53,705 nucleotides of DNA, from the IMG/VR virus record IMGVR_UViG_3300032116_014300, positions 1 through 53,705 of that record; one strand, 5' to 3'. Made by a program: the position numbers and the translations under genes. Positions 4,740 to 26,683 of the stretch are shown here, piece by piece. The stretch's first letter is position 1. Every line of letters starts with the position of its first letter. The stretch is from a virus (lineage: Duplodnaviria > Caudoviricetes). The notes below the pieces were generated by a model. That model was not told where the DNA came from, made no database searches, and was given only the letters and a program-made list of their open reading frames with translations.

Positions 4740-5591
4740 TCATGTGAGTTTCTTTCTCCGTCCAACCATTCCCAATCCAACCAATCCCACGATCATCATA
4801 AGATAGGTGGATGGTTCTGGAACGGTCGTTGATGGAACGCCGCGATCAAAGTTGGTGTTAAGGACTTCGGTACCACCACTGGATACCTTTACGTTATCGA
4901 CGAATCCCTTGTACGCATAGGGCCATTGACTGCCCAATCCCACCCCGACACCCATCACCTGTTTGTCACCATAACACGAGACGATTTGACTAATGGTCAG
5001 TGCTTGAACCCCACCACCCCACACCGGAAGTTCGTTGGTGGAGCAGGGATTGGCACTTAAACTATATCCTTCTGCGTTACGATACCAGAAATTTCCATTA
5101 ATCATTTCAGAAGTTTGCCAACTATCGACGTAACTGAGATCGTTGTTAATAGGACGGTTGAAATAATTTTCCCATACAATTTCCGTATTATCGTCCAAGA
5201 ACACCCGAAACGCAGGTGACTTGTACTTCCAATCATAGAGCTGAATGCCGTCCTTGGTTACGTCGGCATCCCAATTCGGATTAGAACTACGGAACCAATC
5301 AAAACTCAAACTGGTTAGGTTGGATAATGCTCCCCAATTCGTATCTGCATACCGATAAGCAAATACCCAATCTTCCATCTTACCTGTCGTATGCATTTGA
5401 AGTGAACCAAATCCTACATCACCAAATCCATACCGTGGCTTAGCACCTGTAACGGTGGCATTGCCGTTACCTTGGATTTCGGTGTACCATCCAAGGTCTT
5501 TCTGTGCCAGATTGTTCTGTGATACGACTTGTGCGGCTGCGTTTGGAGCAAACAACAGAAGTCCGAGTACAATCATCATAATCTTTTTCAT
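4740..5591 (-). CDS. PEP-CTERM sorting-domain surface protein
   Basis: Signal peptide MKKIMMIVLGLLLFAPNAAA; C-terminus VPEPSTYLMMIVGLVGLGMVGRRKK; GGAGA RBS. Confidence 0.9.
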   Translation of the reverse strand: MKKIMMIVLGLLLFAPNAAAQVVSQNNLAQKDLGWYTEIQGNGNATVTGAKPRYGFGDVGFGSLQMHTTGKMEDWVFAYRYADTNWGALSNLTSLSFDWFRSSNPNWDADVTKDGIQLYDWKYKSPAFRVFLDDNTEIVWENYFNRPINNDLSYVDSWQTSEMINGNFWYRNAEGYSLSANPCSTNELPVWGGGVQALTISQIVSCYGDKQVMGVGVGLGSQWPYAYKGFVDNVKVSSGGTEVLNTNFDRGVPSTTVPEPSTYLMMIVGLVGLGMVGRRKKLT

Positions 5592-5599
5592 AAATTCTC

Positions 5600-6106
5600 C
5601 TAATCCCAAAGTCCTTCGTAATATTTGCCGAATAGACGAAACCCATTGGTAATACGTTCTTGATACTTGGTGCGACCTTCCCAATCACATTCCCCTTCGG
5701 TTTTCCATTTAAATTGATATGCTTCCAATCCATCGACAACCTTTTCTGGCGTCACTGGATCATTCCAATCAATTTCTGGTTTGGTCTTCCAGAACTGTTC
5801 TTCCCAATCGGTGAGCTTACTTTCAAATGCGAAAATCATCTCATCTAATACATACTCCCACCGTTTGAAATGATTCTCATCTACGTCATATTCACCGACC
5901 AACTGCTCCGTACGAAGTTCTTCGGGAACATCTTCCATATCAACGTTGGGAGCACCATGTTGGGTTTCCTTCAACTGCTTTAACATCGGAGTGATAATGT
6001 GGGCAAGAGTATTATCCATACTCCACGTATCCCACGGATCAATCTGGATTTTAACTTTCCGTTCACGATCCGACTTCTTTGGATACTTCCCGATAAAGAC
6101 TTTCAT
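5600..6106 (-). CDS. phage hypothetical protein
   Basis: 168 aa, Trp-rich, ends GFRLFGKYYEGLWD. Confidence 0.8.
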   Translation of the reverse strand: MKVFIGKYPKKSDRERKVKIQIDPWDTWSMDNTLAHIITPMLKQLKETQHGAPNVDMEDVPEELRTEQLVGEYDVDENHFKRWEYVLDEMIFAFESKLTDWEEQFWKTKPEIDWNDPVTPEKVVDGLEAYQFKWKTEGECDWEGRTKYQERITNGFRLFGKYYEGLWD

Positions 6107-7775: not shown

Positions 7776-7847
7776 TGCCCTGAGAAGGATTCGAACCCTC
7801 ACTAACGGTTCCGAAGACCGCTGTGCTCTCCATTACACCATCTGGGC
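7776..7847 (-). tRNA. tRNA-Arg(UCG)
   Basis: Loop CTTCGGA; A20 present. Confidence 0.85.
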
Positions 7848-7927: not shown

Positions 7928-7932
7928 AAAAG

Positions 7933-8016
7933 AGCTCCCGGTGGGATTCGAACCCACAGCGTTTCTTAAGTGCTGGTTTACAAAACCAGTGCAATCAGCC
8001 ATTATGCGACAGGAGC
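7933..8016 (-). tRNA. tRNA-Thr(UGU) with 15-nt variable region
   Basis: Loop TTTGTAA; variable CACTTAAGAAACGCT. Confidence 0.85.
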
Positions 8017-9251: not shown

Positions 9252-9310
9252 AATAAAATTGGTTAGAGTACGACCATCATACTATAAGTAGTCTAACTCT
9301 AACAAAAAAG

Positions 9311-9385
9311 TCCGCCCCACTGGACTTGAACCAGTATATCTTTCGTGTATAAGACGAATGCTGTCACCAATTTAGCTAGAGGCGG
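9311..9385 (-). tRNA. tRNA-Ile(UAU)
   Basis: Stem TTCGT/ACGAA, loop CTTATAC. Confidence 0.88.
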
Positions 9386-9732: not shown

Positions 9733-9803
9733 TAGGCCCAGGTGGTACTGCCCCACCGACTCTTGATCCAAAGTCAAGCGTATTACTATTATACTATGGG
9801 CCA
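9733..9803 (-). tRNA. tRNA-Gln(UUG), non-canonical D/T loops
   Basis: Loop CTTTGGA; T-arm GGTGG-GGCAGTA-CCACC. Confidence 0.75.
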
Positions 9804-14021: not shown

Positions 14022-14050
14022 AATATAACCTTATAATACACAAAAGTCAA
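14022..14050 (-). promoter_or_regulatory. sigma70-type promoter
   Basis: TTGACT-17-TATATT. Confidence 0.8.
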
Positions 14051-14109
14051 CCCCCTGCCAACTTTTGTTACAATTGACAGGGGGTTATTACTATAAAATT
14101 ATATTATAA

Positions 14110-14280
14110 CTATGCTTCCATCAACTCATCGGGAGAGCAGGCAATTAATCTATTTCCAATTTCTACCATATAAAAAGTATGTCCACGGACCATATCAATT
14201 CTCCGAATAACGCCAATCTTTCCGTTATACGTGTGCTCTGCATGATCGTAAATCTGTACCATGTTACTTACATTGAACAT
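14110..14280 (-). CDS. 56 aa hypothetical protein, SH3/KOW-like pattern
   Basis: MFNVSNMVQIYDHAEHTYNGKIGVIRRID..; AGGGG RBS; not in ORF track. Confidence 0.6.
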   Translation of the reverse strand: MFNVSNMVQIYDHAEHTYNGKIGVIRRIDMVRGHTFYMVEIGNRLIACSPDELMEA

Positions 14281-14319
14281 AGGTGCCCCTTGTATGGTTG
14301 AAGGTACTACGGTGTACAG

Positions 14320-14393
14320 CCTCCCCGGAGAGATTCGAACTCCCGACCGTTCGCTTAGAAGGCGAATGCTCTATCCAACTGAGCTACGAGGAG
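14320..14393 (-). tRNA. tRNA-Arg(UCU)
   Basis: Loop CTTCTAA; A20. Confidence 0.95.
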
Positions 14394-14397
14394 AAAA

Positions 14398-14482
14398 CGG
14401 AAGGGGTGGGATTCGAACCCACGATAGGTTTCCCTATTCTTGTTTAGTAGACAAGTGCTATTAGCCGCTCTGCCACCCTTCC
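14398..14482 (-). tRNA. tRNA-Ser(ACU)
   Basis: Ser-type body (GGAAGGG, long arm ATAGG-GAAA-CCTAT, G73); CTTGT-CTACTAA-ACAAG. Confidence 0.88.
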
Positions 14483-14489
14483 AACAAAA

Positions 14490-14563
14490 TGCTTCCGGTG
14501 GGAGTCGAACCCACAAGACCAGGATTTTGAGTCCCGTACGTATGCCAGTTCCGTCACAGAAGC
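14490..14563 (-). tRNA. tRNA-Leu(CAA) with short variable loop
   Basis: Loop CTCAAAA; variable GTCTT. Confidence 0.88.
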
Positions 14564-14680
14564 AAACCATTACATTAGATCATTCTTGTGTCTTGATCGG
14601 CATGTTGAGCATCAAGACCATTTACCTATCACGCATGTATGCCCATGCAATAAAGGGAGACACATATCGTATCTCCCCTT

Positions 14681-14708
14681 AATATAACAATTATTCTATG
14701 TTTGTCAA
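14681..14708 (-). promoter_or_regulatory. sigma70-type promoter of second tRNA cluster
   Basis: TTGACA-16-TATATT. Confidence 0.7.
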
Positions 14709-15061
14709 GGGGTTGGTGTTGGTATAACTTCCCACGGCGGCGTCATTGGTCCTCGTGTGGGGTGTAATTTGTCTTGTATAGAGGCGCTTAAACTGCTTTT
14801 CATGTTGTTTATTGCTTCTTCCCCAAGTTTAGTTTCCACCCACCCAGTAACAATTTCTTTTGTTAAATCTTCAAACGGTACAAACGACCCCGTGTCAGGC
14901 GTTTCTAGTCCCACTGTTCCAATGTTTTGTACTAAAATACTTGAACTGACATGAGTTGCTTGTAACTGCCAGTGTACGACATTTACCACATTTGTTAGTG
15001 TATCTTCGTTATACACAACTTCCAGTGGATGAAAGTTCCAATTATATACTATTTCGTCCAT
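14705..15061 (-). CDS. phage hypothetical protein
   Basis: 118 aa; FVPFEDLTKEIVTGWV; GAGAGG RBS. Confidence 0.8.
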   Translation of the reverse strand: MDEIVYNWNFHPLEVVYNEDTLTNVVNVVHWQLQATHVSSSILVQNIGTVGLETPDTGSFVPFEDLTKEIVTGWVETKLGEEAINNMKSSLSASIQDKLHPTRGPMTPPWEVIPTPTP

Positions 15062-15073
15062 ATACCTCTCCTG

Positions 15074-15673
15074 TTATTTTAATAATCCGTAAAACTTCTT
15101 AAATTTTGCGATACGGTCATCTAACCCATGTGTTCCACCATTGACCTTTTTAGTAATAGCAGTTACGTCGGCATCAGTTGCTCCCTTATCCGCCAATATA
15201 TTTAGTGTACGAGAATTCCAAAACCACGCAGCAGAAAGTAATGGATATTTAGTTGCTACAAGATCGGGATTGTCTGTGGTGTTTTCGTCCACTACTTTAT
15301 CAAATGATTGATAATTCACTTTACCTGTTAGTTGGATGTATCCACGCCCCCGATATTTGAATCCATCCCCACTACTTTCTGGTCCGTTGCCCATGCGATC
15401 TGCATATACCCGATTGGCAATCTTTTCTGGCTGTCGTTCGTATTCTTTTGCCTTTGCTTCGGTTGGAAAATATTTTTTGAAAATTCCAAGTAATCCTTTT
15501 GCACCATAATTTAAATTTTCATTAACGACTTTGAAATTACCCGACTCGTGCGCGCATTGTGCAAGGAAATGACAGAGACGGAGTGGTGTATTGATTTGAA
15601 ATTTTTCCATCACGCCGGGAATTTGTGATAACACCTCGTCGGGAACTGCTCCCTTGAGCTTGTTGATATCCAT
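15074..15673 (-). CDS. glycoside hydrolase family 19 endolysin
   Basis: HFLAQCAHES, ENLNY, YRGRGYIQLTG, NGGTHGLDDR. Confidence 0.93.
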   Translation of the reverse strand: MDINKLKGAVPDEVLSQIPGVMEKFQINTPLRLCHFLAQCAHESGNFKVVNENLNYGAKGLLGIFKKYFPTEAKAKEYERQPEKIANRVYADRMGNGPESSGDGFKYRGRGYIQLTGKVNYQSFDKVVDENTTDNPDLVATKYPLLSAAWFWNSRTLNILADKGATDADVTAITKKVNGGTHGLDDRIAKFKKFYGLLK

Positions 15674-21696: not shown

Positions 21697-21716
21697 AAGT
21701 GTCTCCTATATAACAG

Positions 21717-21799
21717 AGAACGGAGCCGGATTCGAACCGGCGTGGGATTACTCCTAGAGTTTTGCAGACTCCTGCTTTCAGCCACTCAGCCATCCGTTC
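21717..21799 (-). tRNA. tRNA-Cys(GCA) with long variable arm
   Basis: Loop CTGCAAA; U73; variable arm GGA-GTAA-TCC. Confidence 0.88.
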
Positions 21800-25583: not shown

Positions 25584-26066
25584 ATGAGGATGCACATGAA
25601 CGAATGTGATCAATTAGAAAAAGAAATAAACAAGTTAAAGTATGAATTATCAGTGGTAATTCCCAACGATATACAAACATCTATTCAACTGGGAGACTTA
25701 TCAGAGAATTCAGAGTTTTGCGAAGTACTGTCTAGGCAATATGTTGCAAATATTAGGTTATCTCAACTTACGCAACGATTGAGTGTTTGCAAAGAATTTA
25801 CGGCACATGCAATTATACCTGATGTAGTAAACATCGGATCGTTGGTGCGTGTTAGTTGTAAAGAAACCAAAAAGAAAAATGTGTTTAAATTGATAATATC
25901 GGAATTGTCCGACGTACAGTCTGATAAGTTTAGTGAAATCACGTTGCAGTCGCCATTAGGTAAAGCCTTAAAAGGTAGAAAAGTAAAAGATGAAGTATTT
26001 GTGTTTCTGCCTACGGGAAAAGTAACTTATAAAATCTTGGATATATTAACTATGGATGATTTATAA
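25584..26066 (+). CDS. greA: transcription elongation factor GreA-like
   Basis: GDLSENSEF, VNIGSLV, ITLQSPLGKALKG. Confidence 0.9.
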   Translation: MRMHMNECDQLEKEINKLKYELSVVIPNDIQTSIQLGDLSENSEFCEVLSRQYVANIRLSQLTQRLSVCKEFTAHAIIPDVVNIGSLVRVSCKETKKKNVFKLIISELSDVQSDKFSEITLQSPLGKALKGRKVKDEVFVFLPTGKVTYKILDILTMDDL

Positions 26067-26127: not shown

Positions 26128-26346
26128 ATGTACAAGCAGTCAACAAATAAACAGTATATGTTAGTAGATTTAGGACCGTCCACGATAATAATGTTGGCAG
26201 AGTTAATTCTCATAACATTAAAGTTGATGAATCAAATTAGTTACTCATGGACGTTAGTATTATCTCCTATTATACTGGTTATTCTAGGTGCCTCTATCAT
26301 TTTGTTTTTTACATTAATAAAAGTTATTAAAGATAATTTGTTTTAG
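26128..26346 (+). CDS. small membrane protein
   Basis: LKLMNQISYSWTLVLSPI; GGAGG RBS. Confidence 0.7.
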   Translation: MYKQSTNKQYMLVDLGPSTIIMLAELILITLKLMNQISYSWTLVLSPIILVILGASIILFFTLIKVIKDNLF

Positions 26347-26683
26347 GGCGTGTCATGGTTTCGACGGGGTGTGGGTGATTAAGTTTTGTACCCAGTTTGG
26401 TAAAACTGGTAAAACAGACCAAATAAATCTAACTGGCAACTATAATTTAGCCCTCGCTGCTTAATTGCAGCCTGATGACTTAATCTGACCGACCACATAG
26501 GGTTAATTCATTCATTAATGTGGTCTAGCCTTGCTAGGAACCGTATTCAAGGTGATTTTTCGGTTCTATATCTACTCAAGTTTGTTCCTCAACGACAAGT
26601 AGATGAAAATTTATAAGGAACTACGTACATAAACCCTTAATAGGAAGCAAGACCGGACGCGGGTTCGACTCCCGCCACGTCCA
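26346..26683 (+). ncRNA. ssrA: tmRNA
   Basis: 5' GGGCGTGTCATGGTTTCGACGGG, 3' GCGGGTTCGACTCCCGCCACGTCCA with G3:U70; tag frame GNYNLALAA*. Confidence 0.95.

Follow-up and report, generated by a model that had tools for sequence, protein, structure and literature searches.

The gene considered here lies in the tRNA array of a large freshwater phage and appears to specify a serine tRNA with the anticodon ACU, that is, with adenosine at the wobble position (A34) of a split codon box. It raises the question of whether such a gene is real and, if it is, which codons it reads and why A34 has been kept. The stretch of DNA analysed, referred to below as the window, is an IMG/VR contig of 53.7 kb (53,705 nucleotides) with a CheckV completeness estimate of 24%. 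A preliminary description of its sequence had offered three readings of the gene: a dedicated decoder of AGU that escapes TadA, a variant that escapes an anticodon nuclease, or a source of ambiguity at AGA codons.

ARAGORN identified the gene as a tRNA-Ser with the anticodon act on the minus strand, and positions 14398-14482 matched the Rfam tRNA family (RF00005) at 52.8 bits (gathering score 29, E = 8e-9). The cloverleaf is the minimum-free-energy fold. It comprises a 7-bp acceptor stem (GGAAGGG/CCCUUCC), an anticodon stem (CUUGU/ACAAG) closed by the loop CUACUAA (14444-14450), a T arm (GUGGG-UUCGAAU-CCCAC) and a variable arm of 5 bp (AUAGG-GAAA-CCUAU), the last placing the tRNA in class II. 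The sole flaw is an A-A opposition at the third D-stem pair, a position at which the window gene alone, of the 64 unique members of the family described below, is unpaired. The claim that this is a genuine serine-type gene with the loop CT-ACT-AA is therefore confirmed by ARAGORN, Rfam and the fold alike.

Seryl-tRNA synthetase (SerRS) identifies its tRNA by the long variable arm and the acceptor end and not by the anticodon, and the identity elements of the E. coli enzyme are G73, G1-C72, G2-C71, A3-U70 and C11-G24. All of these are present in the window gene, including G73 as the discriminator. Across the family G73 occurs in 77 of 93 genes, while among the unique sequences G1-C72 is found in 63, A3-U70 in 53 and C11-G24 in all 64. 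From these elements we infer charging with serine by SerRS. Since the synthetase ignores the anticodon, ACU should leave charging undisturbed, and this may explain why serine is the split-box amino acid able to take A34. LeuRS and AlaRS are likewise indifferent to the anticodon; if this indifference is what allows A34, the base would be expected, outside Arg(ACG), in Ser, Leu and Ala tRNAs alone. The best explanation of these features is a functional phage tRNA-Ser gene, presumably expressed and charged.

ARAGORN places 24 tRNA genes in the window array, every one of them on the minus strand, and also calls a tmRNA; Rfam gave the same set and one more tRNA. Within it the tRNA-Ser(ACU) gene is the middle member of a trio (Table 1). 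A strong promoter-like site approximately 115 nt upstream of the trio, nearly identical in a relative (L001), and a terminator-like hairpin enclose these three genes together with a conserved 56-aa open reading frame. Based upon this layout, tRNA(CAA), tRNA-Ser(ACU) and tRNA-Arg(UCU) would probably be cotranscribed from the promoter-like site, and the hairpin is the probable end of the tRNA transcription unit. Metatranscriptome contigs (runs X20 and X21) map to the region of the neighbouring DUF7936 gene (14722-15177), outside the tRNA-Ser; in the same mapping, tRNA-Arg contigs from other organisms accumulate on 14317-14410.

Table 1. Features of the tRNA-Ser(ACU) locus and the second serine tRNA gene of the window
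Feature	Position	Strand	Basis and remarks
tRNA-Ser(UGA), the phage's other serine tRNA, for UCN codons	7687..7771	-	ARAGORN, Rfam
Terminator-like hairpin of 16 pairs with a T run after it	14048..14087	-	Sequence scan; conserved in L001
56-aa ORF just downstream of the trio	14110..14280	-	Conserved in L001 and G062; no Pfam family
tRNA-Arg(UCU), reads AGA, third of the trio	14319..14393	-	ARAGORN, Rfam (65.4 bits); 3 nt downstream of tRNA-Ser(ACU)
tRNA-Ser(ACU), class II, long variable arm, G73	14397..14483	-	ARAGORN, Rfam RF00005, fold, relatives
Anticodon A34-C35-U36	14446..14448	-	Direct sequence reading; A34 is the plus-strand T at 14448
tRNA(CAA), called Leu, first of the trio	14489..14564	-	ARAGORN, Rfam; 5 nt upstream of tRNA-Ser(ACU)
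Sigma-70-like promoter match	14681..14708	-	Consensus scan: TTGACA, 16 nt, TATATT, TG extension, 11/12

Several other components of the array and its surroundings are unusual in their own right. The tRNA(CAA) is only 76 nt long in the window and 74 nt in a second relative, G062 (L299 1111-1184), and at this size it has no long variable arm, which is unusual for a bacterial-type tRNA-Leu; the L001 copy measures 83 nt. The tRNA called Cys(GCA) (21716-21799, minus strand; 2080-2163 in L001) has 84 nt, and in the window it shows a serine-type D arm GGCUGAGUGGCUGAAAGC, a long extra arm and the discriminator U73. It appears to combine a class-II-like body with a cysteine anticodon, an arrangement conserved in L001. 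At 9733-9803 (minus strand) Rfam detected a tRNA (49.4 bits) that ARAGORN missed, with the anticodon loop CUUUGGA (UUG, Gln) and an odd T loop, GGCAGUA. The tRNA-Thr(UGU) (7932-8016, minus strand) has 85 nt and a variable region of about 15 nt with no clear stem. The array also includes tRNA-Ile(UAU) and tRNA-Arg(UCG) (9310-9385 and 7776-7847, both minus strand), and UAU is among the anticodons listed as missing from bacteria (PMC8007984). The tmRNA (26346-26683, plus strand; Rfam 128 bits) would encode the tag peptide GNYNLALAA, and a GreA/GreB-like gene (25584-26066) lies just upstream of it. In addition, a 314-aa protein (4740-5684, minus strand) carries a C-terminal PEP-CTERM sorting motif (E = 1.9e-7), which may hint at a host with an exosortase.

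Reads supporting GCT, which the preliminary description had named as one outcome that would overturn its claim, were not encountered. The gene is spanned by DNA contigs from two more public runs, X7, which carries no flag as a possible source, and X12, from another year; they show 0 differences, and nothing is listed at the wobble position, 14448. The relatives likewise keep ACT. In L001 the neighbouring 733-aa protein is 94% identical and the trio recurs as Leu(caa)-Ser(act)-Arg(tct). Its tRNA-Ser matches that of the window in only 67 of 88 alignment columns; all four stems (acceptor, anticodon, variable and T) carry paired changes, with the anticodon loop unaltered. When 14040-14760 is aligned with 9160-9960 of L001, the promoter, leader, 56-aa ORF and terminator are almost identical, but the three tRNA genes between those flanks are strongly diverged, their three anticodons being identical. 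The tRNA genes themselves therefore look as if they had been exchanged in a cassette swap. L001 also has about 70 nt of additional spacer before the Arg gene, carrying a promoter-like motif of its own. In the more distant G062 (164 kb, 90% complete) the counterparts of the 733-aa protein and the AAA protein are 54% and 74% identical and sit in synteny between Arg(tct) and Glu genes, and Leu(caa)-Ser(act)-Arg(tct) is again retained.

The preliminary description had suggested searching phage tRNAs for Ser-ACT, and this proved productive. A pattern combining the serine D-arm layout with the loop CTACTAA gave 78 matches in viral contigs, mostly inside tRNA arrays, and ARAGORN called tRNA-Ser(act) in all 78. 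Among them is E. coli phage 121Q, in whose GenBank record (KM507819) gene 131 is already noted as 'tRNA-Ser(act)'; such a gene is also present in Salmonella phage Munch and Erwinia phage Hallingskeid. The GCT version of the pattern had at least 118 viral matches, 80 of which were listed, a figure that supports only the comparison of 78 with at least 118. An exact 26-base pattern for the anticodon region found 0 matches in the viral contigs; it is over-specific, and the record of the window possibly lies outside the collection. Megablast of the 3-kb neighbourhood against named phages returned short tRNA-Arg matches only. BLAST matches in S-WAM2, Ruegeria V12, BillNye and fGh-Ecl04 were ruled out as Ser(ACU), being Ser(tga). 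Adjacency to tRNA-Arg(UCU), to which the preliminary description drew attention, holds for the window but is not general: Arg(tct) lies within 400 nt of Ser(act) in 17 of the 78 viral loci.

Among prokaryotes, represented by one genome for each of 185,579 species, the pattern had 20 matches, of which 16, in 13 genomes, were real Ser(act) genes. The anticodon is thus very rare in cells, as had been claimed, but not in phages. Eleven of the 16 genes are betaproteobacterial, mostly from Polynucleobacter, and five lie on MAG contigs, two of these with other tRNA genes within 1 kb; one Patescibacteria MAG is among the matches. That Polynucleobacter relies on ACU alone was ruled out, since the four genomes checked all have a canonical Ser(gct) as well. 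Among L084-L102, which come from Polynucleobacter and related genomes, several Polynucleobacter genomes possess 1-4 extra tRNA-Ser(act) genes in addition to a normal Ser(gct), often beside Gly(ccc)-Thr(cgt); these extra genes cluster with an IMG/VR provirus (L058), which makes a mobile element likely. Three contigs named GVMAG and labelled as giant-virus MAGs (L005, L036 and L040) have tRNA-Ser(act) genes of 82-83 nt in tRNA clusters. In G039 (L298, a 64-kb record rated complete) tRNA-Ser(act) adjoins tRNA-Ser(aga) at 1366-1543, and both serine boxes of this one small phage appear to be served by A34 tRNAs. ARAGORN also reported a 99-nt tRNA with a four-base anticodon (taaa) in the carrier G008 (L297, 2559-2657) and a tRNA with a two-base anticodon in the carrier G029 (L296, 12464-12539).

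In these phages Ser(ACU) takes the place of a phage Ser(GCU). As the preliminary description had observed, the window contains no Ser(gct) among the ARAGORN calls, in a fragment that is about 24% complete; nor does one occur among the 21 tRNAs of G062. A relaxed Ser(GCT) pattern, insensitive enough to miss the canonical Ser(gct) of four Polynucleobacter genomes, was found in one of 75 ACT-bearing records and in none of the eight that are at least 90% complete. Conversely, the ACT pattern was found in 0 of 43 GCT-bearing records among the matches listed. Five near-complete carriers (121Q, G029, G008, G039 and G062) have no Ser(gct) in the tRNA sets found, with the reservation that at least one tRNA annotated in 121Q escaped the Rfam search, and in three of the five Ser(act) is paired with Ser(tga). 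These absences are strong but not absolute.

The history of the family was reconstructed from 179 serine tRNA sequences. Fourteen, which were short or had a poorly paired acceptor stem, were dropped, leaving 165, namely 93 ACT and 72 GCT, the latter drawn from the matches listed out of at least 118 viral matches. On a tree built with the wobble position masked, 10 switches between ACT and GCT are required, against a mean of 50.2 and a minimum of 43 in 200 shuffles. The window gene groups with ACT genes, its nearest relatives being 79% identical. Clustering at 90% identity gave 44 ACT clusters, none mixed with GCT. Among the 64 unique ACT sequences, 21 of 25 stem pairs have changed on both sides with pairing at 81-100%, the variable arm covaries, and A34 is retained down to approximately 65-70% sequence identity. 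The few switches, the unmixed clusters and the covariation indicate that A34 has been kept through long divergence under normal tRNA constraints, and the ACT genes make up old, diverse lineages.

We consider it probable that tRNA-Ser(ACU) is a dedicated reader of AGU with an unmodified A34. The loop CUACUAA is without the G36 of the TadA motif YUACGAA, so that A34 would most likely stay unmodified and pair in Watson-Crick fashion with the U of AGU; A37 would presumably carry t6A. The tRNA would then supplement the host tRNA-Ser(GCU) at the commonest serine codon of an AT-rich phage and read AGU only; AGC would be left to the host, and AGA would be read by the phage's own tRNA-Arg(UCU). Editing by TadA is reported to require YUACGAA with its core UACG in a stem-loop, mutations at single positions having abolished or nearly abolished it (PMC12255301). 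The window loop has U at position 36 and departs from this motif, which may not be that of the host's TadA. In E. coli, an orthogonal tRNA given the ACU anticodon brought about reassignment of 9.4% for AGU and 0.36% for AGG; for AGC and AGA it was below detection, and sequencing of the reverse-transcribed tRNA revealed no inosine (PMC11066159). These values rest on an archaeal tRNA-Tyr body and not on a phage tRNA-Ser. With U36 off the motif and the E. coli results, the AGU decoder that escapes TadA would be the best fit of the three initial readings. Ambiguity at AGA, the third of them, is unlikely on the E. coli data, where AGG was the only codon read off target. Of the preliminary description, then, the observation itself holds and the AGU-decoder reading is favoured; AGA ambiguity is unlikely, Arg adjacency is not a general feature, and rarity applies to cells and not to phages.

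Codon usage in the window follows the proposed decoding, AGT being its most used serine codon. AGT outnumbers AGC by 266 to 51 (0.84), as compared with 0.685 for six other NNY pairs pooled (Fisher p = 2e-9); against the Cys pair alone the skew has p = 0.010. Across phages, we compared 30 ACT-bearing with 30 GCT-bearing contigs of equal GC, sampled at 17-20 kb each (the window whole) and with crude ORF calls. The AGT preference had medians of 0.77 and 0.71 (p = 0.65), and the AGT excess over other NNY pairs was 0.07 and -0.01 (p = 0.43). Since AGT use does not differ between the two sets, no advantage of A34 over G34 is shown. At equal GC the carriers do use less AGA than the Ser(GCU) carriers (-4.8 per 1000, p = 0.0009) and less AGG (-1.4 per 1000, p = 0.008), and p = 0.036 and p = 0.023, respectively, were obtained after related contigs were collapsed. 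This depletion, one of about 16 exploratory tests on crude ORF calls from 17-20-kb samples, is a hint only; it is the pattern expected from a real misreading cost of A34 at AGR codons.

Perhaps the host TadA or an enzyme of the phage instead converts A34 to inosine, giving a tRNA that reads AGU and AGC, possibly AGA, and fully replaces Ser(GCU). The loop is one position away from a TadA substrate loop, ACU is the only phage AGY tRNA found in the near-complete carriers, and AGC use in carriers is no lower than in GCT-bearers. With TadA in excess, 29.3% of edited mRNA sites were one base off TACG (PMC12255301), and the range of the S. pyogenes enzyme has been broadened to a second tRNA, although the relaxed positions are 35 and 37 and not 36, where G belongs to the core UACG (PMC11472039). 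We nevertheless regard conversion to inosine as unlikely. The ACU anticodon in E. coli acquired no detectable inosine and did not read AGC, and AGA, which I34 would translate as serine, is a frequent codon in the window (188 codons, 12.2 per 1000). The host retains its own Ser(GCU), so that full replacement is unneeded. A Pfam scan of the 59 window ORFs found no deaminase family; the window is about a quarter of the genome, and a phage deaminase or a Ser(GCU) gene could therefore lie elsewhere in the phage.

In an extension of the second of the initial readings, A34 might serve mainly to evade a host defence which cuts or inactivates tRNA-Ser(GCU) in the anticodon loop, the phage copy restoring AGY reading during infection. 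Phage tRNA arrays have widely been proposed, reportedly by van den Berg in 2023 and by Azam and Burman in 2024, to counter tRNA-targeting defences. The lineages with A34 are of long standing and occur in many phages that are unrelated to one another, and the similar codon usage of ACT- and GCT-bearers leaves room for a driver other than decoding. ApeA is reported to cut several tRNAs in the anticodon loop, one for serine among them (bioRxiv 10.64898/2026.01.26.701840). We know of no nuclease specific for tRNA-Ser(GCU), however, and none was found in the literature searched. Moreover, an A34 tRNA cannot restore the reading of AGC, Ser(GCU) itself is common in phages (at least 118 viral loci), and the Pfam scan of the window ORFs revealed nothing defence-related adjoining tRNA-Ser(ACU). 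On balance evasion of this kind seems an improbable main function.

A34 might also be a tolerated, nearly neutral alternative to G34 that persists and spreads with tRNA cassettes and confers no specific benefit. With a SerRS that is indifferent to the anticodon and a Ser(GCU) provided by the host, a change from G34 to A34 would cost little. The equal AGT/AGC usage of the two sets of contigs agrees with this, as do the exchange of tRNA cassettes within conserved flanks and the occurrence of either form in related phages, one protein-sharing cluster consisting of 7 ACT and 8 GCT contigs. A neutral state should flip often, however, and the 165-gene tree has only some 10 switches, with every 90% cluster purely of one form; ACT and GCT are hardly ever found together (1 of 75 records and, among the GCT records listed, 0 of 43), and A34 persists to the low identities given above. 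Near-neutrality is accordingly very doubtful. The last alternative is a Ser(GCU) pseudogene in decay, or a mistake of sequencing or assembly: ACT is one base away from GCT and the window gene has its one D-stem mismatch, but the exact match in two further runs, the conservation of ACT with compensatory stem changes in L001, G062 and the 64 unique sequences, and the presence of the gene in 78 viral contigs and GenBank phages refute it and leave it virtually no credence.

Returning to the dedicated AGU reader, an intact and structurally conserved gene that recurs in phages, we would extend the interpretation only tentatively. It is conceivable, if a good deal less than probable, that tRNA-Ser(ACU) is a widespread, ancient phage decoding device which breaks the rule forbidding A34 in split boxes and which may mark the genomes of its carriers; the alternative driver of such a device would be a still unknown defence targeting tRNA-Ser(GCU). 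ANN anticodons other than Arg(ACG) have been listed as missing from bacteria, and phage tRNAs as lacking the same set (PMC8007984). Against the set that reviews give as absent stands a structurally selected Ser(ACU) in at least 78 viral contigs and several cultured jumbo phages. No paper describing a phage tRNA-Ser(ACU) was found in the literature searched, and the text of Morgado and Vicente 2019 (PMC6409571) contains no passage on it. The tRNA is already known as an annotation, tRNA-Ser(act), in public phage records, and the family is essentially undescribed. The window locus is one more member of that family and a clean example of compensatory conservation, and not a new kind of element. 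In genome annotation, Ser(act) calls should be retained and not 'corrected' to GCU. How unmodified A34 decodes in a split box, and why cells avoid it, are questions for which the family is a natural test case, and the presence of the gene in E. coli phage 121Q makes it directly accessible to experiment.

The closest known counterparts are the tRNA-Ser genes of 121Q, Munch and Hallingskeid, which share with the window gene the class-II body, the loop CUACUAA and the location in a phage tRNA cluster; 121Q, like the window, has no Ser(gct) that we could find. They are only 72-79% identical to the window gene, and the phage lineages and hosts differ; the Munch and Hallingskeid records list a plain tRNA-Ser with no anticodon given. 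The tRNA-Ser(GCU) of bacteria and phages has the same class-II architecture, D-arm layout, G73 and loop except at position 34, but its G34 reads both AGC and AGU, whereas A34 of Ser(ACU) should be limited to AGU; the ACT genes group in lineages of their own, and the two forms are almost never found in one genome. A natural tRNA with unmodified A34, the tRNA-Thr(AGU) of Mycoplasma capricolum, was reportedly described by Andachi in 1987. As in Ser(ACU), its A34 is encoded and is not an expected substrate of TadA. It serves a four-codon box, where misreading is harmless, whereas ACU operates in a split box in which AGY specifies serine and AGR arginine. The engineered M. jannaschii ACU tRNA of Schmitt, Tittle and Fisk 2024 (PMC11066159) has the same anticodon and was used in the host species of 121Q; its body is an artificial one of class I, charged with tyrosine and in competition with the tRNAs of the cell, and not that of a natural serine tRNA. 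Lastly, known TadA substrates, as far as the cited accounts describe them, likewise present A34 in a 7-nt loop of the form C/U-U-A-x-x-A-A, and Ser(ACU) differs from them in having U instead of G at position 36, which breaks the core UACG.
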